Positions 1 through 16,714 of a stretch of 64,000 nucleotides of DNA are shown here, in pieces; within the stretch, counting starts at the first letter, position 1, and each line of letters begins with the position of its first letter. Both the position numbers and the translations under genes were made by a program. Where the stretch lies: positions 41,548-105,547 of the forward strand of contig CANGCM010000002.1 of NCBI GenBank assembly GCA_947452535.1. The letters are read 5' to 3'. The notes under the pieces are model-generated. The model was given only the letters and a program-made list of their open reading frames with translations, had not been told where the DNA came from and ran no database searches. This stretch comes from Burkholderiaceae bacterium (GTDB taxonomy: Bacteria; Pseudomonadota; Gammaproteobacteria; Burkholderiales; Burkholderiaceae).

Positions 1-78
1 ATTCTGAGGAATAGTTAAATTCAGATCAGTAAGGATGGCACAGGGTCCACGATAGATTGATAGCTGGCTGGTTTTCAT
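1..78 (-). CDS. ABC transporter ATP-binding subunit (BtuD/FecE-like), N-terminal part only; continues off the window
   Basis: ATG at 78-76 overlaps the permease stop (ATGA). Reads MKTSQLSIYRGPCAILTDLNLTIPQN, a typical ABC-ATPase N-terminus, and is next in the B12 uptake operon. Confidence 0.65.
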   Translation of the reverse strand, partial: MKTSQLSIYRGPCAILTDLNLTIPQN

Positions 79-1052
79 GGGCGAGCTCCAAAAGCGCTTC
101 GCCTGAGAAGGGTTAGTAAATATAGACCTCCCAAGACTGCCGTGACAATACCAACTGGTATTTCTAGTGGGGCAAATAAAGTACGTGCAAGTAGATCCGA
201 GCTCAGTAATAAGATTCCGCCACCAAGACAGGAGAAGAGTAGCTGTATACGTTGCCGTCCGCCAGAAAGCGTTCTCACTAAATGGGGTGCTGCCAATCCG
301 ACAAACGCAATCAGACCGGTTTGTGCAACAGCGCACCCAGTAGCTAAGGCAAGAACGCCAATCAAAACAAGACGCAGTTGGTCTAGCGGCAAGCCCAAGG
401 TGCGAGCGGTATTCTCACCCAGAGATAAGGCATCTAAGGTGGGGCTGATAAGCAAAGTGACAAGTAAACAAACTACTAAAGCGCCAGCCATCAGCTCTAC
501 GCCAGGCCAATTCAGTAATGTCGTATTGCCCAGCATGAAAGACTGAATACTTTGAAATAGATCTGGACGTATAAATGTAAATAAAGAATTTGCTGCTCCT
601 AAGATCACGCTGATCACTACACCGGATAATAAGAGGCGCAGGGAACTGCGGTAACCTCCGGCTAGAAGCAGGGAGGCTATAACTCCCAGCATTGCCCCAA
701 AAAAAGCGCCACCATTAAGACCAATCAGCTCTAACCAAGAGTTACCAAGATAAGCAAAGCAGAGAATGCTAGCAACGCCTAGCAGTGCGCCTGATGCGCT
801 ACCTAATAGATAGGGGTCAGCCAACGGATTACGAAATAAGCTTTGTGCAATGCCACCCGCCAGTCCCAACAATGCGCCAGCAAGATAAGCGCCCAATGAT
901 CGCGGTAGTCGAATGTCAAGCATGATGACCTGATCAGGACCCAATGCATTCCAGCCAACACCCGTGCTCCCCAAAAGAGTTCCTAGCAGGACTAGGGTCA
1001 AGCTGAGAATGAGTAGGCCAGAAAGCTTGCCGAGAAAATGATTTTTTTGCAT
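75..1052 (-). CDS. btuC: FecCD/BtuC-family ABC transporter permease (B12 uptake)
   Basis: Motifs RLPR, FRNPLADPYLLG, GLIAFVGLAAPH, EIPVGIVTA. Start placed at ATG 1052 because it overlaps the upstream stop (TAATG). Confidence 0.88.
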   Translation of the reverse strand: MQKNHFLGKLSGLLILSLTLVLLGTLLGSTGVGWNALGPDQVIMLDIRLPRSLGAYLAGALLGLAGGIAQSLFRNPLADPYLLGSASGALLGVASILCFAYLGNSWLELIGLNGGAFFGAMLGVIASLLLAGGYRSSLRLLLSGVVISVILGAANSLFTFIRPDLFQSIQSFMLGNTTLLNWPGVELMAGALVVCLLVTLLISPTLDALSLGENTARTLGLPLDQLRLVLIGVLALATGCAVAQTGLIAFVGLAAPHLVRTLSGGRQRIQLLFSCLGGGILLLSSDLLARTLFAPLEIPVGIVTAVLGGLYLLTLLRRSAFGARP

Positions 1053-1954
1053 TACTGAGATGATGACATCTTCTCTTGAATACATTGAGAAATCATCAAG
1101 GCTGCCTCACCCATGCGGGGGCCGGGACGAACTAAGACATCATTCTGATCGGCAGTAAAAGTACAGATGCGATTCCTCACGACTGCCGGTATAGAGCTCC
1201 ACCCTGGGCGTCTCTTAATTTCAGCGGGGGAAGGTTCAGTGAGCAGAATGACATCGGGCTTAGCTTGCACCACAAACTCGGGATTAATTTTTGGAAACGG
1301 CCCCAGCGAATCTGGAATGATATTAATCAAATCAAGGCGTGACAGAATCTCCCCAATGAATGATGCTCTTCCTGCAGCAAAGGGCGCTGGATTGACCTCA
1401 ACATACACGCGAATATTTTTCTCAAGTAAGGACAATTGCTTATTGGCGCGCATGACCTGTTGTTGGATTTGATTCCAGACTCGACTACTTTCTGCAGTAC
1501 CCAAAATAGCATCTAGCTTTTGAAGCGCTCTCTCTTCATCACCCATGGACTTAATGTCTAGTGCAAATGTTTTAATCCCTAAAGAATTGAGCCTTGCAAT
1601 CACAGGCGAGGCTTTCTCAAGCAAAACCACATCGGGCTTGAGTTGCACAATGCGCTCAATATTGACATCACCCATTCCACCTAACTTGGGTAAATCCTGA
1701 ATCGATTTTGGCCAATTAGAGAAGCGATCAACGCCAACTAAGGCGCCACATTTCCCTAGGGCGCAAACCGATTCAGTGAGAGAGGGTAGAAGACTCACGA
1801 TACGCTGGGGCGGTTTATCAAACACCAATATAACGCCACGGTCATCGACTACGGAAACTGGCGCCGCAAAAACAACCAATGAAAATCCTAGAAAGAATAA
1901 AAGAACCCCAGCTAAGCGATAGCAAGGGCGAGTTGAGGTTTTCATGTCTTTCAA
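1052..1954 (-). CDS. btuF: Periplasmic cobalamin-binding protein (BtuF/TroA-like)
   Basis: Signal peptide, then VVDDRG...PQRIVSLLPSLTE, NIERIVQLKPDVVL, RPGPR. Lies downstream of the TonB receptor. Exact start (1954 vs 1945) uncertain. Confidence 0.85.
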   Translation of the reverse strand: MKDMKTSTRPCYRLAGVLLFFLGFSLVVFAAPVSVVDDRGVILVFDKPPQRIVSLLPSLTESVCALGKCGALVGVDRFSNWPKSIQDLPKLGGMGDVNIERIVQLKPDVVLLEKASPVIARLNSLGIKTFALDIKSMGDEERALQKLDAILGTAESSRVWNQIQQQVMRANKQLSLLEKNIRVYVEVNPAPFAAGRASFIGEILSRLDLINIIPDSLGPFPKINPEFVVQAKPDVILLTEPSPAEIKRRPGWSSIPAVVRNRICTFTADQNDVLVRPGPRMGEAALMISQCIQEKMSSSQ

Positions 1955-1966
1955 TATATTCTAAAT

Positions 1967-3976
1967 TTAGAAGTTATATCTTGCGCTTACAAAGTAAGTT
2001 GTTGGTGTTGTAGGATAGTAGTAATAACCTTTAACAGAGTCATACCCTCCAGTTGTTGCGTAAGAATTGCCACCAATATTTTTAATCATTAATTTAGTAT
2101 CCCAAGAACCTACCTTATAGCTAGCATAAATATCTGCTGCTACATAGGATGGAATCTTTGCTAGTGAATTCATCATGTTTGGGTCTGCATCATAGTTTTG
2201 ATTGCCTACATAATTAATCACTGCACCTGCACTCCATGCACTATTAAACACATATTGGGCGCGAGCGTTTAGCAGTAGATTAGGGGATAGTCCGACACCT
2301 ACTCCAGCTGCGGATCCGGTAGCAAAGGTGGATCTTTGAATTTTGCCACCAGCCGCGAGAGTGAGATTTCGGGCGACATTGCTTGAGGAGTCAAAAAGGA
2401 AGCCGGTGCGATTAATATTACCGATGGTGTTGATATTTCCATAGGTAGATGGGTCGTAGCGAATTTCATTTTGCGTAATTGATTGGAATAGTAGAGCTGA
2501 AACATGGGATTGATGCATGCTCCAATCACCCCCAAACGAATAGGTTTGAGAAATTTGGGGCTTTAAGATGCCATTGAATACTGGCGCTCCATAGCCGCTG
2601 TTTGCACTTGGATCATAGCCCCAGAATTCGTCTGTATTTGGAAACCGATAAGATTGATTCCATTTAATGAATATTTTTCGTCCTGATTGATAGTTGTAAT
2701 TCAATGCAATGTCGCCAGCATTTGCTGAGTATTTTTGACTGGCACTAATCGCTGAGCCAGAAGAGAGGTCGCTTGTAGACGCATTCTGTGCTTGATGTCT
2801 AAAGCCCCCACTGGCTTCTAGTCCGTTGACTATCCTTAGAGGAATTCGTGAGATGAGATACACCGATTGATTGAGGACGCTGACGTTTTGCTGAAGACTA
2901 GTTGTGCTAAAAGTTGAGCCTGAAGAGCTACTTTGAGCGGCTTGATTAAAGTCATAACCAGCAACGGTTGTTCCCCACTCACCAAAGTTTGCTTTCACTT
3001 TTGGAGAGGCTGCAAGTTGCCAGTTTGGATATAGGTAGTAGTAGGGATAGGCCGGGATATTGGAGTTCAAATTTTTATTTGAATATGTCCCATCAATGTC
3101 AAAAGTAAGTCTATCTGTGATCGCTTTGATAAAGCCAGCCCTAATTCCGGATTGATCCGTGGTTGTGGTTGATCCAATAAATTCAGATCTCGCCGATCGG
3201 GTATTGCCTGTTCCCGCCTGACCTAAAACCGATCCCGGTGTTTGGGAGTTTGAGTGGTTAAAGAATACGTCCGCATAGACTTGATCAATTCCACCCAATG
3301 ATTGAGTTACTTTGGCGTCAAATGAGTAGGCGTTTGCTGCGGAGTTTTGTCGCCAACCATCTGTATTGGAGGTATTTGCGGTAAGTTGAATGGTTGTGTC
3401 ATCGAACTTGTTACGTAAAATTGCATTGTTAATAACGGTGTTGTAGCTTCCATAAGTAACCGAGGCTTGGTTCAGGTTTTTTGCGCCACCATTAGTAATG
3501 ATGTTGATCACCCCTCCCACGGCTCCGTTACCGTATTGAACGCTTGCTCCACCTTGTAGTACCTCAATTCGCTCGATGGAGTCTATCGGGATCGATTCCC
3601 AATTAATAGTGCCTGAATCTATAGGATTTAATCGCTGCCCATCCACCAATATCAATGTCGTGCTGTTTGCAGAAGCGCCATAGCCACCCATATCTACAGA
3701 CGCATCTAGATTTAATGAGTTCCCGCTAGAGTATTTGACACTCAATCCACCAATTTGGGATAGCACTTCAGGAATGTTATTTGAACTTGAGTTTGCAATT
3801 TCATCGCGTGTGATCACTTTGACGTTTGCCGGAACCTCATTGAGGTTCTGTTCAAAACGTGAACCAGAGACAATGACTGTTGACTGAGAGTTTTGTGCAA
3901 TTGCCGTTGAACTTAGGGTGATTGCTGCGCCGCAAAGTAGGGCGCCAATAATTCTGCTGCTGAACTGCTGTTTCAT
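1967..3976 (-). CDS. btuB: TonB-dependent outer-membrane receptor, likely for cobalamin
   Basis: Signal peptide, TonB-box-like TVIVSG, plug motif IERIEVLQGGASVQYG.GAVGGVINIIT, C-terminal aromatic YNF. First gene under a cobalamin riboswitch. Confidence 0.85.
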   Translation of the reverse strand: MKQQFSSRIIGALLCGAAITLSSTAIAQNSQSTVIVSGSRFEQNLNEVPANVKVITRDEIANSSSNNIPEVLSQIGGLSVKYSSGNSLNLDASVDMGGYGASANSTTLILVDGQRLNPIDSGTINWESIPIDSIERIEVLQGGASVQYGNGAVGGVINIITNGGAKNLNQASVTYGSYNTVINNAILRNKFDDTTIQLTANTSNTDGWRQNSAANAYSFDAKVTQSLGGIDQVYADVFFNHSNSQTPGSVLGQAGTGNTRSARSEFIGSTTTTDQSGIRAGFIKAITDRLTFDIDGTYSNKNLNSNIPAYPYYYLYPNWQLAASPKVKANFGEWGTTVAGYDFNQAAQSSSSGSTFSTTSLQQNVSVLNQSVYLISRIPLRIVNGLEASGGFRHQAQNASTSDLSSGSAISASQKYSANAGDIALNYNYQSGRKIFIKWNQSYRFPNTDEFWGYDPSANSGYGAPVFNGILKPQISQTYSFGGDWSMHQSHVSALLFQSITQNEIRYDPSTYGNINTIGNINRTGFLFDSSSNVARNLTLAAGGKIQRSTFATGSAAGVGVGLSPNLLLNARAQYVFNSAWSAGAVINYVGNQNYDADPNMMNSLAKIPSYVAADIYASYKVGSWDTKLMIKNIGGNSYATTGGYDSVKGYYYYPTTPTTYFVSARYNF

Positions 3977-4411: not shown

Positions 4412-5029
4412 ATGACAGCATTAGATAAGCACCCCGAAAAAAATCTGATTCGTTTACAGCTTAGCCAAAACTCGGTGTTGAAAAGCTTGGATTCTGAATC
4501 AATGGCTGATTTAGAACGTCATTTAGTGATTTCAGACCTCAGAAAATCAGAAATACTCCTCCATCAGGGCGATCACCAGATGGAACAGTACTTTGTACTA
4601 GACGGAATTTTGAAGCGCATTGTCTCTAGCGCTGATGCAAAAGAGATGATTTTGCGTTTCGCCATAGAGAAAGACATTGAGACGAGCTATGCAGCCTGGC
4701 GCCTTAAGACCGCAGCCCCATATAGCATTGCGTGCGTTACCAAGTCCCGAGTAGCTCGGATGCCACTCAAGAAATGGGTAGAGTTCCTAGATGCCCACAA
4801 GTCGTTAAAAGAGAGTTTTGAGTTTGAGGTTATGCGCTTAATGAGCGAGATCATGGCTCACACCATTACTTTACATATGCTCGATGCGCCAGGCCGGGTA
4901 GAGCGGTTCTTGCGTAAATACGAGGACTTATTTGAATTACTTCCTAAAAAAGAGCTGGCCGCATACCTTAATCTATCCCCAGAGACTTTGAGTCGCCTCA
5001 AAACAAAGCATAAAGAGCTTTTTGTCTAA
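4412..5029 (+). CDS. Crp/Fnr-family transcriptional regulator (no Fe-S Cys cluster)
   Basis: cNMP-binding-like domain (ILLHQGD..YFVLDG) and C-terminal HTH ELAAYLNLSPETLSR with the FNR-type E..SR recognition helix. Confidence 0.88.
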   Translation: MTALDKHPEKNLIRLQLSQNSVLKSLDSESMADLERHLVISDLRKSEILLHQGDHQMEQYFVLDGILKRIVSSADAKEMILRFAIEKDIETSYAAWRLKTAAPYSIACVTKSRVARMPLKKWVEFLDAHKSLKESFEFEVMRLMSEIMAHTITLHMLDAPGRVERFLRKYEDLFELLPKKELAAYLNLSPETLSRLKTKHKELFV

Positions 5030-5107: not shown

Positions 5108-5240
5108 TCAGTCCAGCCTCAATAGGGGCATTTATTTTGACCTATGGCACTAATAACAACTTAATTGGAGACGGTTAGCGAAAGCTAAATTGCACATTCC
5201 AGGCTTGACGTTCGGGCGGTGTAATTCACTAAAATTTTTT

Positions 5241-6950
5241 ATGACAACAGACAATCAAAATACGCAAGTCACTGATGGCTTTCATCTCGTCATTGATGCT
5301 TTAAAGGCAAATGACTTAGACACCATTTTTGGTCTGGTCGGCATTCCCATCACTGACTTATGCCGTTTGGCTCAAGCTGAAGGATTGCGCTTCATTGGTT
5401 TCCGTCATGAGCAGCATGCCGGAAATGCTGCAGCGATTGCCGGTTACATGACTCAAAAACCTGGTATTTGTATGACTGTGTCAGCACCGGGTTTCTTGAA
5501 TGGTTTGACAGCGCTAGCGAATGCTACTGTGAACTGCTTTCCAATGATTTTGATCTCGGGCTCAAGTGAGCGCGAGATCGTTGACTTGCAGCAGGGTGAT
5601 TACGAAGAGATGGATCAGCTCAATGCGGCTAAGCCATATTGCAAAGCAGCCTACCGTATTAATCATATTGAGGATATCGGCATTGGTTTTGCTCGGGCAA
5701 TTCGTGCAGCTGTTTCTGGTCGTCCTGGCGGCGTGTACTTAGACTTACCCGCTCAATTATTAGCCCAAACAATGCCTGTTGAAGAGGCGAAGAAATCAAT
5801 CTTCAAGGTAATTGATCCGGTTCCACGTCAAATTCCTGCACCTGATGCTGTAGAGCGTGCGCTGAATGTGCTAAAGGGTGCAAAGCGTCCATTGATCCTG
5901 TTGGGTAAAGGCGCTGCTTATGCTCAAGCGGATGCTGATATTCGTGCTTTGATTGAAAAATCCGGTATTCCTTACTTGCCAATGTCGATGGCTAAAGGTT
6001 TATTGCCAGACAATCACCCACAATCTGCCTCTGCAGCACGTTCATTTGTATTGGCCGAAGCCGATGCCGTGTTATTAGTAGGTGCGCGTCTGAACTGGTT
6101 GCTCGCACACGGTAAAGGCAAGACTTGGGGTAAAGAGCCTAAGAAGTTTATCCAAATAGATATTCAAGCGAACGAAGTAGATAGCAATGTGCAAATCGAT
6201 GCTCCATTGATCGGCGATATTGGTTCATGCGTCGGCGAGCTCTTAAAAGGGATTGCGGTAGTTCCAAAGCCATCTACTGAATGGATCGGCGCAATCAATG
6301 AGAAGAAGAATAAAAACTTAGCGAAGATGGCGGAGACACTTGCTAAAGAAGCTTCGCCAATGAACTTTCATGGTGCCTTGCGTGCGATTCGTGATGTGAT
6401 CAAGAAAAACCCAGATGTGAACTTAGTAAACGAAGGTGCCAATACGCTCGACTATTGCCGCGCCATTGTAGATATGTACAAGCCACGCAAACGTTTTGAC
6501 TCCGGTACCTGGGGCATTATGGGTATTGGTATGGGCTATGCGATTGGTACATCAGTCACTAGCGGTTTGCCGACTGTTGCAGTGGAGGGTGATAGCGCCT
6601 TTGGCTTTAGTGGTATGGAATTAGAAACTATCTGCCGTTACAACTTACCAATCACAACCGTTGTTTTCAATAACAACGGTGTATACCGTGGCACCGACGT
6701 CAACCCAACAGGCGGGGCAGATGTGGCGCCAACCGTATTCGTTAAGAATGCGCGCTATGACAAGATGATCGAAGCCTTTGGCGGTGTTGGTTACTACGTG
6801 ACCACCCCAGCTGAATTAGAGGCAGCATTGACTAAAGCGATTGCTGAACGTAAGCCGGCCTTGATCAATGCCGTAATTGATGAAACTGCCGGTACAGAAA
6901 GTGGACGTTTAACAAACCTCAATCCTTCCACCGCTGCTAGTAAGAAGTAA
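5241..6950 (+). CDS. oxc: Oxalyl-CoA decarboxylase (ThDP-dependent)
   Basis: [47 protein letters not shown], ThDP motif [11 protein letters not shown]...NNNG, C-terminal GTESG. Alternative TTG start at 5190. Confidence 0.96.
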
Positions 6951-7027: not shown

Positions 7028-8278
7028 ATGACTAAACCATTAGACGGTATTCGCATCATCGATTTCACGCATGTGCAAGCTGGTCCTGCATGTACTCAGC
7101 TGTTGGCTTGGTATGGTGCTGACGTGATTAAAGTGGAGCGTCCAGGTTCTGGGGACGTGACTCGTAGTCAGTTGCGTGATATCCCTGGCGCAGATGCTTT
7201 GTACTTCACTATGTTGAATGGCAATAAGCGCTCTTTGACTTTGGATACCAAGACTCAAGAAGGTAAAGAAGTATTGGAGAAGATGATCAAGACCTCTGAC
7301 GTGATGGTTGAGAACTTCGGTCCTGGCGCCTTAGATCGTATGGGCTTTAGCTGGGCACGGATTCAGGAATTAAATCCAAAGATGATCATGGCTTCTGTAA
7401 AAGGTTTTAGTGATGGCCACTCATATGAAGACTTAAAAGTGTATGAGAACGTTGCTCAGTGTGCTGGTGGTGCTGCTTCTACAACCGGTTTCTGGGATGG
7501 CCCCCCTACAGTTTCTGCCGCTGCCTTAGGCGATAGCAATACTGGTATGCATTTGGCAATTGGCATCTTGACTGCATTGATGCAGCGTCAAAAAACTGGC
7601 AAAGGTCAAAAAGTATCCTGCTCAATGCAAGATGCTGTATTGAACTTATGCCGCGTGAAGTTACGTGACCAACAGCGTTTGGACAGGATTGGATACTTAG
7701 AAGAATACCCACAGTATCCACACGGCACATTCTCTGACGTAGTTCCCCGTGGCGGTAACGCAGGTGGTGGTGGGCAGCCAGGTTGGGTGTTGAAGTGTAA
7801 GGGGTGGGAAACAGATCCAAATGCTTACATCTATTTCACCATTCAAGGCCATGCTTGGGAGCCAATTACCCGTGCAATCGGTAAGCCAGAGTGGGCAACT
7901 GATCCGGCTTATATGACTGCTGAAGCCCGTCAAGATAAAATTTTTGATATCTTCGCAACCATTGAAGCTTGGCTCAAAGATAAGACCAAGTACGAAGCGG
8001 TTGATATTCTCCGTAAGTTCGATATTCCTTGTGCACCCGTTTTCTCAATGAAGGAGTTGGCTGCCTCTCCTGACTTGCGTAAGAGCGGTTCTATTGTTGA
8101 GGTTGACCATAAGGTTCGTGGCAAGTATTTGACAATCGGTAGCCCAATCAAGTTCTCTGATTTAGAGATTGAAGTTGGTCCATCGCCCGTGTTGGGCGAA
8201 CACACTGACGAGGTGTTGACTGATCTTGGCTACAGCTCGGATGATATTGCTAAATTGCACGCAGCCAAAGCAGTTTAA
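7028..8278 (+). CDS. frc: Formyl-CoA:oxalate CoA-transferase (family III), paralog 1
   Basis: [21 protein letters not shown], active-site ALGDSNTG, glycine loop [11 protein letters not shown]. Strong SD AAGGAGA. Confidence 0.95.
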
Positions 8279-8307: not shown

Positions 8308-8336
8308 AAAGGCGCTCCTAGTGAGCGCCTTTTTTT
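8308..8336 (+). terminator. Rho-independent terminator after frc-1
   Basis: AAAGGCGCTC-CTAGT-GAGCGCCTTT followed by a T-run. Confidence 0.88.
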
Positions 8337-8389: not shown

Positions 8390-8839
8390 ATGAACGCAAA
8401 TATTGATTTAAGCCAATTAGTGAACTGCATTGGGGATGCGATCATCGTTGTCGATGCCCATGAAAAAATTGTGCTGTGGAATCCTGCCGCTACTCGAATC
8501 TTTGGTTACTCTGAAATAGAAGCTTTGGGAAATACCCTAGATTTAATTATTCCAGAGCGTCACCGTCAAAGGCACAATGAGGGTTGCCGCAAGACGATGG
8601 ACACAGGTATTACTCGTTACGGCACCTCATTACTTAAAGTGCCGGCCCTTCATCAGAGTGGCAGCATGCTTTCGATCGCCTTTACTGTGGGCATGCTTTT
8701 TGATGAGAATCACAAGGTAAACGGAATCGTTGCGGTGATTCGGGATGAAACCGAGCGCTTTGCACAGGAGCGTGAACTGAAAAAGCGGATCTTTGATCTT
8801 GAAGGATCTAAAGGGGTGGTTTTAGGTCAAAAAGTGTAG
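8390..8839 (+). CDS. Stand-alone PAS-domain protein
   Basis: DAIIVVD...IVLWNPAATRIFGYSEIEALG..LDLIIP, ending in VIRDETER plus a coiled coil. No output domain. Confidence 0.88.
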   Translation: MNANIDLSQLVNCIGDAIIVVDAHEKIVLWNPAATRIFGYSEIEALGNTLDLIIPERHRQRHNEGCRKTMDTGITRYGTSLLKVPALHQSGSMLSIAFTVGMLFDENHKVNGIVAVIRDETERFAQERELKKRIFDLEGSKGVVLGQKV

Positions 8840-8953: not shown

Positions 8954-10201
8954 ATGGCAAAAGCATTAGACGGGGTGAAAATCCTCGACTTTACTCATGT
9001 TCAATCGGGGCCAACTTGTACTCAGTTACTCGCATGGTTTGGTGCCGATGTCATCAAGGTGGAAAAATCCGGTGAGGGTGATGCAACGCGTGGTCAATTG
9101 CGTGATATTCCTGATGCGGATAGCTTGTATTTCACAATGTTGAACCATAACAAGCGTTCGATTACCGTCAATACCAAAACGCCTCGTGGCAAAGAAATTC
9201 TAGAGCGCCTGATTAAAGAATGTGATGTTTTGGTTGAGAATTTTGCCCCTGGAGCATTGGATCGCATGGGTTTCTCTTGGGAGCGTATTCAAGAGCTCAA
9301 TCCTATGATGATTATGGCTTCGGTTAAAGGTTTTGGCCCCGGCCCTTATGAAGATTGCAAGGTTTATGAAAACGTTGCGCAGTGTGCGGGCGGTTCGGCA
9401 TCTACTACTGGTTTTGATGACGGCCCTCCTATGGTGACTGGTGCGCAAATTGGGGATAGTGGTACTGGTCTGCATTTGGCATTAGGGATCGTCACAGCGC
9501 TATATCAGCGTACACACTCTGGCCGTGGCCAAAAGGTATTGGCAGCCATGCAAGATTCGGTCTTGAACTTATGTCGCGTGAAGTTGCGCGATCAGCAACG
9601 CTTAGAGCGCGTTGGCTTGATGCAAGAGTATCCGCAGTTCCCAAATGGTGAATTTGGCGACTCTGTACCCCGTGCTGGCAATGCCTCTGGCGGCGGTCAG
9701 CCTGGTTGGATTGTGAAATGTAAAGGCTGGGAAACAGATCCAAATTCCTATATGTACGTCATCATTCAAGCTCCAGTTTGGGAGGCGGTTTGCAAAGTGA
9801 TCAGTCGTGAAGATTGGATTACGGATGTGCGTTTTGCATCACCAATGGCCCGCTTGCCACACCTCATGGAAATTTTTGGTGAAATTGAAAAATGGACTAT
9901 GACTAAGACAAAGTTTGAGGTGATGGATATTTTGAATAAATACGATATCCCATGTGGCCCGATTTTATCGATGAAAGAGATTGCGGAAGAGCCAGCATTA
10001 CGTGCTACCGGAACGGTCGTTGAAGTAGATCATCCGATTCGCGGCAAGTACCTTACCGTTGGTAACCCAATCAAGATGTCTGATAGTCCAACCGATGTCA
10101 CTCGCTCCCCATTGCTTGGTGAGCATACCGATGAGATTCTCAGTGAGCTTGGTTTTACTACTGATGAATTAATTTCTCTTCGTCATGATAAGGTGATCTA
10201 A
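8954..10201 (+). CDS. frc: Formyl-CoA transferase (family III), paralog 2
   Basis: [40 protein letters not shown]. Confidence 0.93.
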
Positions 10202-10202
10202 G

Positions 10203-11135
10203 ATGCGGATTGCGTTGATTGGTAGTGCAGATTTTGGAAAAGCGGCCTTAGAAGCCTTTTTAGATCGTGGCGATGAAGTAGTTGCCGTCTTTTGTCCGCC
10301 TGATAACCCGAAATCAACTAAGCCTGAGGTACTGAAGGAGGTTGCTATTGCAAGGGGTCTAGCCCCATTGCAATTTTCTTCCCTCAAAGGTCCTGAAGCG
10401 GCCCAAGCGATGATTGATAGTAAGGCCGATATCTGTGTCATGGCCTATGTACTGCAATTTGTACCGCAAGAGCTGTGTAAGATTCCAAAGCATGGCACGA
10501 TTCAGTATCACCCTTCTTTATTGCCGAAGTATCGTGGCCCTAGTGCGATTAATTGGGCGATTGCCTTAGGTGAAGAGAAGACCGGTTTAACGATCTTCCG
10601 ACCATCTGATGGTTTGGATGAGGGTGAAATCATTTTGCAAAAAGAAGTCGCTATTGCACCTGATGACACTCTAGGTAAAGTCTACTTTGACCACTTGTTC
10701 CCGCTGGGTGTCAAAGCCTTGCTTGAAGCTGCTGATCTAGTGGCTGCCAACAAACATCAAGAGCTTGTACAAGATGAGTCACAGGCAAACTATGAAGGCT
10801 GGTTTGGAGTTGATGCTGCCCGAATTCATTGGACAACCCATATTAATCAAATCTACAACTTAATTCGAGCATCCAATCCTGCGCCTGGTGCGTGGACCAA
10901 GATTGGTGAACAGAAGGTGCAGATCTACGATTGTCGTAAGCATATAGCTGCCACTTTTGGTTCTGTAAAAGGTAAGCCTGGAGAAATCACCCAAATTACT
11001 TCGAGCTCATTTTTTGTTGCCTGCCATGGTGGACAAATCGAAGTCCTCAAAGCCAAGGGTGTTGCAGGAAAAGTACCCGGTGCCGAGTTGGCTAAGGAGA
11101 TGAATCTAGAAGTAGGTCAGTTTTTTACGCTATAA
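10203..11135 (+). CDS. Formyltransferase-fold protein (Fmt / 10-formyl-THF dehydrogenase N-terminal-domain-like)
   Basis: HGTIQYHPSLLPKYRGPSAINW, DGLDEGEIILQKE, PDDT, PAPGAWT. Starts 1 nt after the frc-2 stop. Confidence 0.85.
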   Translation: MRIALIGSADFGKAALEAFLDRGDEVVAVFCPPDNPKSTKPEVLKEVAIARGLAPLQFSSLKGPEAAQAMIDSKADICVMAYVLQFVPQELCKIPKHGTIQYHPSLLPKYRGPSAINWAIALGEEKTGLTIFRPSDGLDEGEIILQKEVAIAPDDTLGKVYFDHLFPLGVKALLEAADLVAANKHQELVQDESQANYEGWFGVDAARIHWTTHINQIYNLIRASNPAPGAWTKIGEQKVQIYDCRKHIAATFGSVKGKPGEITQITSSSFFVACHGGQIEVLKAKGVAGKVPGAELAKEMNLEVGQFFTL

Positions 11136-11308
11136 AGAACTGTTCTCAATCGTCTAACTTCTTCATTGTTATCTGGTGACAATGCGAAGTTTTGTTCGGT
11201 AACAAACATAAAATCAATTTTATTTTTTAAAAAGGTAATAACTTACAAATACAAAATTTAGTTTCGATTTCCCTAGGTGAATACCCCTTCAGGGAATATG
11301 ATTATTAA

Positions 11309-11650
11309 ATGTCTGAACATTATGTTAAATACCTGCATTTCTCTAGCTCTATCAGGAAGATAAACAAGCGCTATAAGTTGACCGAGCACAAACAGGTTAT
11401 GGTGCTTGAGGAAGTCCTTACCGCCCACGCGGAGAGCGTCACCCTTTCTGTCTTAGATCTCATACTGCTAAAAGAGATTGCCTCCCAAGCAACTCTATAT
11501 TCAATTACAAAGCGACTAATAGATTTAAAACTGATTAAGACGAAAGTCTGCAAAGTAGATGGGCGGCGTAAATACATACTCCCAACGAAGCTAGGGATGT
11601 CTTGGTTGAATGATTGCTCAGAGCTGTTGGCCTCAACTACTAAAAAATGA
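11309..11650 (+). CDS. Winged-helix (MarR-like) DNA-binding protein
   Basis: SQATLYSITKRLIDLKLI followed by wing motif DGRRKYILPTKLG. Confidence 0.65.
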   Translation: MSEHYVKYLHFSSSIRKINKRYKLTEHKQVMVLEEVLTAHAESVTLSVLDLILLKEIASQATLYSITKRLIDLKLIKTKVCKVDGRRKYILPTKLGMSWLNDCSELLASTTKK

Positions 11651-11958
11651 TTTATTCCGCATGTAGAGGTGTGCTGTTGATTTCTTTGGGATTGCTATCC
11701 ATGTCGACACTAACCTACGCTCAACTCACTAAAGAAGATAGGGTGATTTGTTATAAATCAGCCATCAAGGAACCCCTCACTTTTTATGGCAACCCAATGG
11801 ATGCCTTTACCCTATATGACGGTAGTAAATGGAAGGTTGCCGATGGAGGCCCTGTTGAATTTATACCCTTGCGCTATCGCAATGTAATAGTTTGCCCAAC
11901 TGAACAACTTCTGATTATTGATAAGAGGGCGTTATTAGTTGAGAAGATGAGAATCTAA
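11647..11958 (+). CDS. Hypothetical protein with probable signal peptide
   Basis: ATGA overlap with the upstream gene, hydrophobic N-terminus ending TYA, two Cys in the mature part. Confidence 0.55.
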   Translation: MIYSACRGVLLISLGLLSMSTLTYAQLTKEDRVICYKSAIKEPLTFYGNPMDAFTLYDGSKWKVADGGPVEFIPLRYRNVIVCPTEQLLIIDKRALLVEKMRI

Positions 11959-12014
11959 AGCCATTCTTCTTTTCTTGAGCCCCATAGCGCCTAAGGCGCA
12001 TTGAAATCTTGTAG

Positions 12015-14061: not shown

Positions 14062-15732
14062 TTAGAGGTTTGCAGCCAATAAGACCTCAATTTGAGGCGC
14101 TTCGACCCGAGTCATGAGGTGTTTATAGGGTTTGATCGGATTTTGGCTGGAGAGGGGCGCTTTAACGTCATTCCAGGTTAGGGCTGGCACGGAGAGGAAG
14201 TCCTCGACACCAGCCGTTACCTTGGGTAGCACTGGTTTGAGATAGAGGCTTAGCAAACGGAATCCTTCTAATGTCACGCTACATACCTTTTGTAGATCTG
14301 CTTCACGCTCTGGATCTTTAGCAATTTCCCAAGGCTTGTTTTCATCTACGAAGCTATTTAACTTATCAGCCATTTCCATGATGGTGCGCAATGCTTTTGC
14401 ATACTCGCGTCCTTCATAGAGCTCGGCAATTTTTTCACTAGCCGAAGTAATGTCAGTCAGTAGTGGATTATTCATGGCTTCATCGGAAACAATGCCGCCG
14501 AAACGTTTCACTAAGAAGCCGGCACTACGGCTGGCAATATTGATATATTTGCCCAATAGGTCGCTGTTGACTCTGGCAACAAAGTCTTGAAGATTAAGAT
14601 CTAAATCCTCCATACTGTCATTGAGCTTGGTTGCAAAGTAATAACGGAACCATTCTGGATTAAAGCCAGACTCAATGACGCTGTGCGCAGAAATTAAGGT
14701 TCCACGTGACTTACTCATCTTCTCGCCATCGACTGTGAGGAAGCCGTGAGCAAAGACATTGGTTGGTGTGCGATAGCCTGCAAAGTGCAGCGTTGCCGGC
14801 CAAAAGAGTGTGTGGAAATACAGAATATCTTTACCAATGAAGTGATACTGCTCGGTAGTCGTATCTGGCCTGACCCACTCCTCAAAGTTCAGTCCTTTAC
14901 TCTGGCAGTAGTTGAGGAAGCTGGCGTAATAGCCAATTGGGGCATCAAGCCAGACGTAGAAATATTTGCCAGGAGCATCTGGGATTTCAAAGCCAAAGTA
15001 GGGTGCGTCACGCGAGATATCCCAGTCACCAAGCTTGCTCTCTCCGGGCTGTCCAACCCATTCCTTCATCTTGTTACGGGCTTCGGGTTGTAGTGGTGTT
15101 CTGACTTGAGTCCAGTCGCGCAAAAATGTTTCACAGCGAGGATCAGATAGCTTAAAGAAGTAATGATCAGAAACTTTGGTAATTGGTGTTGCACCGCTCA
15201 CCACTGAGAAAGGATTTTTTAAATCCGTTGGTGAATAGGTTGCCCCGCACTTTTCGCAAGAGTCACCATATTGATCTTTAGCGCCACATTTAGGGCACTC
15301 GCCTTTAATGAATCGATCTGGCAAGAACATTTCCTTCACAGGATCGTAAGCTTGCTCAATCGCACGTTTTTCAATCAGACCCGCATCTCTTAGCTTAAGG
15401 TAGACGCTTTGAGAGAGTGTTTCGTTCTCAGGGCTATCAGTGGTGTAGTAGTTGTCGAAAGAAATCAAGAAGTCATCGAAATCGCGCTTATGCTCTTTCC
15501 AGACATTCGCAATCAGTTCCTTGGGGGTGAGCCCCTCTTTTTCAGCGCGCAGCATGATGGGTGTGCCATGAGTATCATCAGCGCCAACATAATGCACTTC
15601 ATGACCACGCATTCTTTGGAAGCGGACCCAAATATCGGTCTGGACATATTCCACCAAGTGACCGATGTGAATCTGGCCATTGGCGTAAGGCAATGCGGAG
15701 GTAACTAGCAGGCGACGTTTGGGGCTACTCAT
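14062..15732 (-). CDS. metG: Methionine--tRNA ligase (lacks the C-terminal tRNA-binding domain)
   Basis: [13 protein letters not shown], zinc knuckle CPKC/CEKC, KMSKS. About 556 aa from ATG 15732. Confidence 0.96.
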
Positions 15733-15865
15733 GAAAAGCGGACTTAAATAGAAAAATTTCAACCAATGGGAATACCTGATTATGAGGCTTGAAGCCCTGT
15801 TTCAGCACTAATTTTAGTCTGCGGTTAAAGTTAACTCCGATTTGAACCTATTAAAGAGACGTTTT

Positions 15866-16714
15866 ATGGCCTTGCCCCACAATATCCAAATGTCAAATGC
15901 CTCCGTGCCCTTAGTGCACGAAGTGCAGACCATGGATGAGGCGGGACGCATCAAGACCACCCATATTCCTGGGGAGCGCCCCCTCACGATCTACTTGGAT
16001 AAACGCGAAGTGGTTACCTTGATGACCCTAGGTAGTGCTCCGGAGGCTCTGGTGCTTGGTTACCTCCGTAATCAGCGTTTGGTAGAGTCGCCGGACGATA
16101 TTGAGAGTATTCAGGTGGATTGGGATACGGATTCAGCCGCTGTTAAGACCCATCGAAGCACTGTTGATATCGATGCACTCACCAGCAAGCGGGTGGTTAC
16201 CACCGGTTGTGGCCAGGGCACCATGTTTGGTGGTTTGATGGAGGAAATGGCTGAGATCCGACTTTCTGATGGGCCTCAGCTCAGCCAAGAAGCAATCGTC
16301 AGTCTGATTGATAGCATTCGCATTCACGACACAATTTACAAAAAATCGGGCTCAGTTCATGCCTGCGCTGTGTTTGAGCGTGACGGCATGAATCAAGTGC
16401 GCCTGCTGCATTTCATTGAGGATGTGGGCCGACATAACGCGGTTGACTCGATTTCAGGTCTGATGTGGTTGGCTGATAAGCCAGGAAGAGATCTGATTTT
16501 CTTCACTACCGGGCGACTTACCTCGGAGATGGTCATCAAAGGTGCTCAGATGGGGATTCCTTTCCTCATGACCCGCTCCGGCATGACCTTAATGGGCCTG
16601 GAATTAGCCCGCAAAACCAATCTCACCCTCCTAGCCCGCTGTTCTGGGAAGCATTTTGAGATTTTCAATGCCCCAGAGAGGGTCATTTTTAGTTCTTCAA
16701 CTGCCTCCACCTAA
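15866..16714 (+). CDS. fdhD: Formate dehydrogenase accessory sulfurtransferase
   Basis: ERPLTIYLD..EVVTLM, TTGCGQG, GSVHACA, EDVGRHNAVD, TGRLTSEMVIK. Start could be 15842 (TTG) or 15866. Confidence 0.92.
   Translation: MALPHNIQMSNASVPLVHEVQTMDEAGRIKTTHIPGERPLTIYLDKREVVTLMTLGSAPEALVLGYLRNQRLVESPDDIESIQVDWDTDSAAVKTHRSTVDIDALTSKRVVTTGCGQGTMFGGLMEEMAEIRLSDGPQLSQEAIVSLIDSIRIHDTIYKKSGSVHACAVFERDGMNQVRLLHFIEDVGRHNAVDSISGLMWLADKPGRDLIFFTTGRLTSEMVIKGAQMGIPFLMTRSGMTLMGLELARKTNLTLLARCSGKHFEIFNAPERVIFSSSTAST

Follow-up and report, generated by a model that had tools for sequence, protein, structure and literature searches.

A stretch of 64,000 nucleotides (nt), the window of this analysis (assembly GCA_947452535.1, contig CANGCM010000002.1, positions 41,548 to 105,547), derives from a Polynucleobacter genome and carries a cluster of genes for the breakdown of oxalate. 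Oxalate breakdown by formyl-CoA:oxalate CoA-transferase (Frc) and oxalyl-CoA decarboxylase (Oxc) is textbook biochemistry. The last gene of this cluster encodes a formyltransferase, and the name Ftl is used here for this 310-amino-acid (aa) product of the open reading frame (ORF) at positions 10203-11135 (protein P0001). By analogy with its characterized relatives, Ftl is most likely a thiol-directed formyltransferase that depends on 10-formyltetrahydrofolate (10-formyl-THF), acts in central formyl-CoA metabolism, and represents a widespread, mis-annotated group. The cluster has the following features.

4412-5029, plus strand: Crp/Fnr-type regulator with a cyclic-nucleotide (cNMP)-binding domain and HTH_Crp_2 (Pfam PF00027, PF13545), located 5' of oxc
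5190-6950, plus strand: oxc, oxalyl-CoA decarboxylase, a thiamine diphosphate (ThDP) enzyme whose products are formyl-CoA and CO2
7028-8278, plus strand: frc1, formyl-CoA:oxalate CoA-transferase (TIGR03253, 724 bits; cut-off 504)
8308-8332, plus strand: intrinsic-terminator-like hairpin with a 10-bp stem and a T-run (consensus scan; a pattern match only)
8390-8839, plus strand: PAS-only protein of 149 aa that opens the frc2-ftl unit (Pfam PAS families)
8954-10201, plus strand: frc2, second formyl-CoA transferase paralogue (TIGR03253, 728 bits; YfdW, 614 bits)
10203-11135, plus strand: ftl, stand-alone formyltransferase resembling the N-terminal domain of ALDH1L1, candidate 10-formyl-THF:CoA formyltransferase (310 aa)

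The oxc product scores 1015.8 bits against NF006721 (cut-off 557) and 983 bits against TIGR03254 (cut-off 739). Both frc products exceed the NCBIfam equivalog cut-offs and score as true Frc, and the best solved relatives of the frc1 product are YfdW (680 bits) and the Frc of O. formigenes. The terminator-like hairpin stands between oxc-frc1 and PAS-frc2-ftl.

As stated in a preliminary description made from the sequence, ftl starts 1 nt after frc2 within the oxc/frc cluster. The frc2 stop codon TAA occupies positions 10199-10201 and is followed by a single G at 10202 and the ftl ATG at 10203. A Shine-Dalgarno-like word, GGTGA, lies inside the end of frc2, 7 nt upstream of this ATG. Given the 1-nt gap and the position of this word, frc2 and ftl are probably translationally coupled. 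Metatranscriptome contigs from three freshwater libraries align to parts of frc2 and ftl with 85-99% likeness, in matches that take in 5-7% of the sampled words and that could reflect DNA carry-over. No contig in these libraries spans the frc2/ftl junction with at least 31 letters on each side.

Placement of Ftl among the formyltransferases

Ftl is a soluble protein made up of the two Pfam domains Formyl_trans_N and Formyl_trans_C. Its close homologues (80-92% identity) occur in Polynucleobacter and carry the database label "methionyl-tRNA formyltransferase." The model for Met-tRNA formyltransferase (Fmt), TIGR00460, is indeed the top NCBIfam match of Ftl. However, the score of 159.8 bits lies below the curated equivalog cut-off of 201.5 bits, and Ftl was rejected as a member of this family. 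A true fmt, at 248-280 bits, is present in all 18 congeners searched, besides an Ftl paralogue at about 155 bits. In both complete Polynucleobacter genomes checked (G002 and G013), the high-scoring fmt directly follows def.

The preliminary description had also remarked that ftl has no def neighbor. This is correct, as def is not found near ftl and in congeners lies directly upstream of the different, true fmt. The separate def-fmt locus whose existence was to be confirmed can thus be seen in congeners, whereas the source assembly, which is 74.6% complete, lacks both genes. Because this assembly is incomplete and the two genes are adjacent in congeners, the housekeeping pair of the source genome is most likely located in the unassembled part.

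In an alignment with Fmt and ArnA, the catalytic residues His103 and Asp139 of Ftl are invariant, and Gln101 occupies the position of the Fmt/ArnA Asn. These assignments agree with those made at first from the sequence, and the motifs quoted at that time are all present in the translation. The tRNA-recognition loop of Fmt is 5 residues shorter in Ftl. Among the sequences used for the trees described below, the corresponding motif reads I-Q-Y-H-P-S in the Ftl clade, N-x-H-[AG]-S in Fmt and ArnA, and I-I-Y-H-P-S in ALDH1L1. Gln is found at the Asn position in 35 of the 38 Ftl-clade members with a readable motif.

Phylogeny was assessed with quick trees of 116 and 49 rows and with an approximately unbiased (AU) test. 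In the 116-row tree, Ftl falls inside a 41-row clade with a support of 97 by the Shimodaira-Hasegawa-like approximate likelihood-ratio test (SH-aLRT). This clade is nested in one of 62 rows (support also 97) that includes animal ALDH1L1 (P0199), and true Fmt and ArnA lie outside the larger clade. A grouping of Ftl with true Fmt is rejected by the AU test (delta lnL 146, p 4.8e-40). Placement by profile and by tree, which the preliminary description had proposed as a check, therefore separates the two proteins, and the clustering with Fmt that it had named as evidence against its proposal was not observed.

A phmmer search of the PDB gives the ALDH1L1 N-terminal domain as the first match (2bw0, E 3.9e-50, 174 bits), followed by Fmt (5uai, E 3.4e-38) and then ArnA, with HypX far behind (E 6.6e-11). 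The greater likeness to the ALDH1L1 N-domain than to Fmt, originally suggested, is thereby borne out. AlphaFold produces a confident model of Ftl (mean predicted local distance difference test score, pLDDT, 95.2). When this model is compared with the PDB by using Foldseek, ArnA-N, ALDH1L1-N, and Fmt all match with template-modeling (TM) scores of 0.83-0.92.

The net charge of the C-terminal domain was considered as a proxy for tRNA binding, but the values were too noisy, with odd tails on many representatives, and this measure was dropped. Polynucleobacter carries a third formyltransferase paralogue (L108; G002:C1:441449-442174, and equivalents), a 289-aa protein that scores about 140 bits to fmt and groups with ArnA N-domains on a long branch.

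Gene neighborhoods and fusion proteins

The gene order crp-oxc-frc1-(PAS)-frc2-ftl is found in all 80 Polynucleobacter loci surveyed, wherever the contig reaches that far. Because these loci are mutually close kin, the linkage was sought outside the genus. A contig scan yielded loci of Polynucleobacter alone, and genome samples were used for the broader survey. A class sample of 400 genomes revealed Ftl orthologues in six other genomes (45-51% identity), and a phylum sample of 401 genomes added five more outside the genus (40-58% identity). The ftl cluster contains frc in nine of the ten non-Polynucleobacter genomes with usable flanks, and frc is directly upstream of ftl in eight. These ten genomes span at least eight families other than that of Polynucleobacter. 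The survey of frc linkage called for in the preliminary description thus favors a conserved association over a chance arrangement.

The frc genes of other families are 72-83% identical to frc2 versus 63-65% to frc1, so the frc that precedes ftl in these families is of the frc2 type. In the closest relative outside the genus (63% identity), ftl resides elsewhere within the same oxc-frc-PAS-frc cluster, which indicates that the linkage outlived a rearrangement. Frc scores over the cut-off in 22 of the 401 genomes of the phylum sample, from 14 of 211 genera. Ftl is detected in 8 genomes (6 genera), and each of these 8 belongs to the 22 with Frc.

In four non-Polynucleobacter genomes, the ThDP gene upstream of frc encodes a true Oxc (65-71% identical to the Oxc of the window), and a true Oxc is also present on the metagenome contigs L103 (1032 bits), L106, and L115. 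In five Gammaproteobacteria, the ThDP enzyme shares only 24-26% identity with Oxc, and among solved structures its best relatives are 2-hydroxyacyl-CoA lyases (HACLs; 7pt3, E 1.8e-78). Oxc and HACL-like enzymes both release formyl-CoA, and formyl-CoA is therefore the common denominator of ftl clusters. The loci with HACL-like enzymes (L097-L101, from G162, G182, G334, G349, and G094) have the order tctCBA-gntR-[HACL-like ThDP]-frc-ftl, followed by fhs, fdsBA, or a panE-like gene. Their ThDP enzyme is closest to 2-hydroxyisobutyryl-CoA lyase (7pt3), and a formyl-CoA cycle is presumed.

Other recurring neighbors of ftl encode a GntR regulator, the TctABC transporter, formate dehydrogenase, and formate-THF ligase (Fhs). 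The fhs gene adjoins ftl in five contexts. The preliminary description had anticipated an anticorrelation between ftl and fhs. This pattern exists in Burkholderiales only, where no fhs was found in complete Polynucleobacter genomes or in genome G669, and elsewhere fhs is adjacent or fused to ftl. Polynucleobacter does carry an NAD-type formate dehydrogenase. A 610-aa frame around ftl in G669 was discounted, because its N-terminal 296 residues have no family match and the ORF has probably been called too long in this GC-rich genome.

Longer relatives of Ftl were also sought, and at least 34 clusters of 878-898-aa proteins proved to be Ftl-Fhs fusions. In these, the first 310 residues have about 50% identity to Ftl, and the remainder is a full Fhs (952 bits). 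One of these fusions is encoded on contigs of up to 623 kb, where the genes run gntR-oxc-frc-[ftl::fhs], and many Alphaproteobacteria-type contigs encode Ftl and Fhs as a single 880-aa protein. Also, transcriptome data for the diplonemid Namystynia karyoxenos include a 920-aa protein with Ftl at the N terminus and Oxc at the C terminus (Oxc part 587 bits, over the cut-off). An intermediate is usually common to the partners of a fusion; it would be 10-formyl-THF with Fhs and formyl-CoA with Oxc. Thus, the two kinds of fusion together point to both substrates of the reaction proposed below.

The diplonemid fusion (P0309, from EukProt) appears under two protein identifiers, and both a eukaryotic gene and a bacterial associate are possible sources. 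An apparent Frc-Ftl fusion (P0306) was rejected as most likely an assembly artifact, because its contig (L106) has several frameshift-split genes. The gene order of this contig, oxc-frc-ftl-fhs, is informative despite the frameshifts.

Other features of the locus are more variable. The Crp/Fnr-type regulator is kept at the same position in Polynucleobacter loci and in contigs L115 and L117. The PAS-only protein at 8390-8839 has a weak match to the PAS domain of FixL. Most Polynucleobacter loci have it. It went undetected in several lineages, L015, L021, L022, L062, and L074 among them, and it recurs beside the same neighbors in the distant contig L115. Downstream, the spacer between ftl and panC ranges from about 15 nt to about 8 kb in Polynucleobacter. 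The spacer in the window (11136-12014) carries two small ORFs, 11309-11650 and 11647-11958, that overlap by 4 nt and are shared with just one other of the 80 loci (L026). The first is weakly PadR/SarA-like (E 0.005-0.009) and the second has no family match; the two may be an inserted small regulator or a toxin-antitoxin-type pair. Within 3-5 kb downstream of ftl are metG (14062-15762, minus strand) and fdhD (15842-16714, plus strand). The latter encodes a formate dehydrogenase maturation factor, and the formate dehydrogenase alpha subunit is encoded on other contigs. Just upstream of the regulator, the minus strand at 75-3976 encodes a TonB-dependent receptor, a periplasmic binding protein, and a FecCD-type permease, a set that resembles systems for iron/siderophore or cobalamin-type import.

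Proposed reaction and role

We consider it probable (roughly 0.68) that Ftl is a reversible 10-formyl-THF:CoA formyltransferase, which would catalyze the reaction 10-formyl-THF + CoA-SH <-> THF + formyl-CoA. A thiol, rather than water or an amine, would attack at a His103/Ser105/Asp139 site of the ALDH1L1-N type. This mechanism is proposed by analogy with the ALDH1L1 N-domain, the nearest characterized relative. Ftl would thereby join the folate formyl pool to the formyl-CoA pool of the Oxc/Frc cycle. The preliminary description had suggested the same interconversion, which is the best fit to the gene contexts and fusions.

The link between these pools was originally presented as undescribed, and this is true only in part. 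LctF was reported in 2025 to make formyl-CoA in vitro from 10-formyl-THF and CoA (PMC11730586), and the N-domain of HypX (also called HoxX; PDB 6j0p) has been proposed to transfer a formyl group from 10-formyl-THF to CoA (PMC6802093). Hence, the chemistry is known, and it is the role beside Frc and Oxc that is undescribed. No paper describing a formyltransferase in oxalate or formyl-CoA catabolism was found in a body of literature whose coverage was incomplete, such that absence is unproven.

Frc spends one formyl-CoA per oxalate and Oxc returns one, so the cycle is closed and autocatalytic. Formyl-CoA has a half-life of 1.9 h, and YfdE has been proposed to prime the cycle in E. coli at times of formyl-CoA scarcity (PMC3720670). 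In Polynucleobacter, a search for a YfdE equivalog gave nothing over the cut-off. The lability of formyl-CoA, the lack of a YfdE equivalog and of Fhs, and the NAD-type formate dehydrogenase narrowly favor a priming role, in which the main job of Ftl would be to start the Frc/Oxc cycle and to top up labile formyl-CoA. Polynucleobacter has no Fhs, and FolD-derived 10-formyl-THF would serve as the donor there. Where Fhs adjoins Ftl or is fused to it, the source would be formate and ATP. That the proposed reaction and the priming role both apply is somewhat short of an even bet. A little more tentative still is the idea that Ftl and Fhs together might constitute a THF-mediated, ADP-forming formyl-CoA synthetase (formate + ATP + CoA <-> formyl-CoA + ADP + Pi).

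Several observations weigh against this interpretation. The choice of CoA as the acceptor draws on context, fusions, and analogy. The fold does not separate Fmt, ArnA-N, and ALDH1L1-N in comparisons with the predicted Ftl structure; sequence and tree alone do so. LctF is likened to Ftl by its described reaction and not by sequence or tree, and HypX is only distantly related (E 6.6e-11, TM 0.67, 18-19% identity). Certain Ftl-clade members have no frc nearby, namely P0128 and a member in G805 with an fhs-ftl pair only, and the genome with this pair alone carries a true frc elsewhere. The priming role in particular faces three difficulties. The Ftl-Oxc fusion is best explained if Ftl consumes formyl-CoA made by Oxc, moving a formyl group from a thioester onto THF is expected to run slightly downhill, and Frc enzymes sometimes prime themselves with succinyl-CoA.

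The alternative that survives best retains the reaction and gives it the opposite net direction, such that formyl-CoA made by Oxc is drained into THF and feeds purine, formylmethionine (fMet), and one-carbon (C1) metabolism. Formate as such would have no access to this route in Polynucleobacter, which lacks Fhs. Where Fhs is fused, the resulting 10-formyl-THF may proceed to formate and ATP. We regard this drain as somewhat less likely than priming, but it has several points in its favor. Complete Polynucleobacter genomes lack fhs, so Ftl would be the sole entry of oxalate-derived C1 units into folate. The intermediate of the diplonemid Ftl-Oxc fusion can only be formyl-CoA made by Oxc. Moreover, Fhs is reversible (delta G of ATP formation, +5 kJ/mol; PMC8085960), and frc2 might, speculatively, use another CoA donor to keep oxalate activated. 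However, the two frc copies each score as true Frc. Fused enzymes usually work one after the other, but Ftl and Fhs would work side by side if each of them produced 10-formyl-THF, and the two known CoA-formylating enzymes (LctF and, as proposed, HypX) run toward formyl-CoA. Another thioester would also have to make up for each formyl-CoA that leaves the Frc/Oxc cycle, and as a result no ATP would be saved. For this reason, and also because of the Fhs fusions, the original view of Ftl as an ATP-free shunt from oxalate into folate is not sustained.

A less probable explanation is that Ftl formylates an acceptor other than CoA, such as an amine, a sugar nucleotide, or a carrier protein, by using 10-formyl-THF, and that this acceptor is encoded or used close to oxalate genes by coincidence. 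Most members of the Fmt/ArnA/sugar N-formyltransferase superfamily do formylate amines, the fold is common to them (TM 0.83-0.92), and a few Ftl-clade members are encoded away from frc. However, no gene for a sugar-nucleotide enzyme, a nonribosomal peptide or polyketide synthase (NRPS/PKS), or a carrier protein recurs in ftl clusters. The recurring partners are instead Frc, Oxc or HACL-like enzymes, and Fhs, of which all but Fhs bind formyl-CoA. In addition, 35 of the 38 readable clade members have Gln where amine formyltransferases typically carry the catalytic Asn.

It is more improbable still that Ftl is a PurU-like 10-formyl-THF hydrolase, the alternative raised in the preliminary description, or a THF-mediated formyl-CoA hydrolase that frees formate and CoA. 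The breakdown of oxalate in eukaryotes has been postulated to include a formyl-CoA hydrolase step. The isolated ALDH1L1 N-domain hydrolyzes 10-formyl-THF in vitro, but this activity needs an added thiol as the first attacker (PMC4388273). A fusion of Fhs to a 10-formyl-THF hydrolase would be a futile ATPase, which makes a plain hydrolase unlikely. With PurU models, Ftl reaches just 19.7-26.4 bits, far from the cut-offs of 223-286 (TIGR00655, 19.7 versus 285.95), the ACT domain is absent, and a separate PurU-like gene is present elsewhere in Polynucleobacter. Formyl-CoA also decays spontaneously, and formate is already freed by Frc.

Finally, although the source annotations and the best NCBIfam match (TIGR00460) name a methionyl-tRNA formyltransferase and metG lies about 3 kb away on the opposite strand, the sub-cut-off score, the AU test, the deleted loop and lost Asn, the true def-fmt of congeners, and the conserved partners frc, oxc, and fhs (none from translation) largely refute a second Fmt and indicate from sequence that Ftl is not the Met-tRNA formyltransferase of the cell.

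How the formyl-CoA cycle starts, how it survives the decay of formyl-CoA, and how it connects to C1 metabolism are unsettled questions that Ftl would address. If the proposal is correct, a CoA-folate formyl exchanger adds a step to the oxalate pathway, and Ftl-Fhs would supply the start-up and repair device that the autocatalytic Frc/Oxc and Frc/HACL cycles have been missing. In the reverse direction, Ftl-Fhs would add a new site at which formyl-CoA drives substrate-level phosphorylation. The stand-alone Ftl of Polynucleobacter would tie the cycle directly to FolD-derived 10-formyl-THF. Polynucleobacter is an abundant freshwater genus that lives on photo-oxidation products such as oxalate, and the proposal thus bears on its C1 metabolism and energy gain from these substrates. 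The proposal would also correct a widespread mis-annotation as Met-tRNA formyltransferase, explain the bacterial origin of the thiol-directed chemistry of the ALDH1L1 N-domain, and offer a natural ATP-to-ADP route to formyl-CoA for synthetic pathways based on formate and HACL.

Comparison with known systems

The closest characterized system is the N-domain of ALDH1L1 (PDB 2bw0, 1s3i, and 4qpd), which is 32-33% identical to Ftl and has the same two-subdomain fold. The residues named as key in the zebrafish N-domain (Nt-FDH), Phe89, His106, Ser108, Arg114, Asp142, and Tyr200 (PMC4388273), correspond to Phe86, His103, Ser105, Arg111, Asp139, and Tyr197 of Ftl, and all are identical. Both proteins have the Y-H-P-S-L-L-P motif and lack the tRNA loop of Fmt, whereas an Ile of ALDH1L1 is replaced by Gln101 in Ftl. 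The so-called hydrolase reaction of Nt-FDH starts with attack by a thiol, which is mercaptoethanol in vitro (PMC4388273), and in full-length ALDH1L1 the formyl acceptor is the 4'-phosphopantetheine arm (PMC8748788, PMC4388273). In contrast to this natural acceptor, the thiol presumed for Ftl is that of free CoA, and Ftl is partnered with Frc, Oxc, and Fhs. By cryo-electron microscopy (cryo-EM), the pantetheine arm of ALDH1L1 is seen in the C-terminal domain and not in the N-domain (PMC8748788). Therefore, no residue-level map of thiol binding can be transferred to Ftl. ALDH1L1 also has carrier and aldehyde dehydrogenase domains, whereas Ftl stands alone at 310 aa, and its longer relatives are fusions to Fhs or Oxc and none to an aldehyde dehydrogenase. 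The Ftl clade is separate from the ALDH1L1 group, and the 49-row tree leaves their mutual order unresolved.

Fmt (TIGR00460; PDB 1fmt and 2fmt) has the same overall fold as Ftl (TM about 0.9) and the same H-x-S-L-L-P and Asp motifs. Its donor, 10-formyl-THF, is also the one proposed for Ftl.

LctF, from lactacystin biosynthesis in Streptomyces lactacystinicus, is a stand-alone, Fmt-like enzyme that catalyzes the very reaction proposed for Ftl (PMC11730586). It differs in context, as it belongs to a secondary-metabolite cluster without Frc, Oxc, or Fhs and feeds a PKS loading domain. HypX shares with Ftl the formyltransferase fold and the His/Asp pair and, as proposed for Ftl, binds THF, and it functions in synthesis of the CO ligand of O2-tolerant [NiFe] hydrogenase. 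Its formyltransferase domain is fused to an enoyl-CoA-hydratase-like decarbonylase domain that holds CoA, which Ftl lacks, and it has Asp at the position of the triad Ser of Ftl.

YfdE/UctC, an acetyl-CoA:oxalate CoA-transferase, is a functional analogue of the favored priming role of Ftl and not a homologue. It has the family III CoA-transferase fold, which is unrelated to that of Ftl, and its donor is acetyl-CoA.

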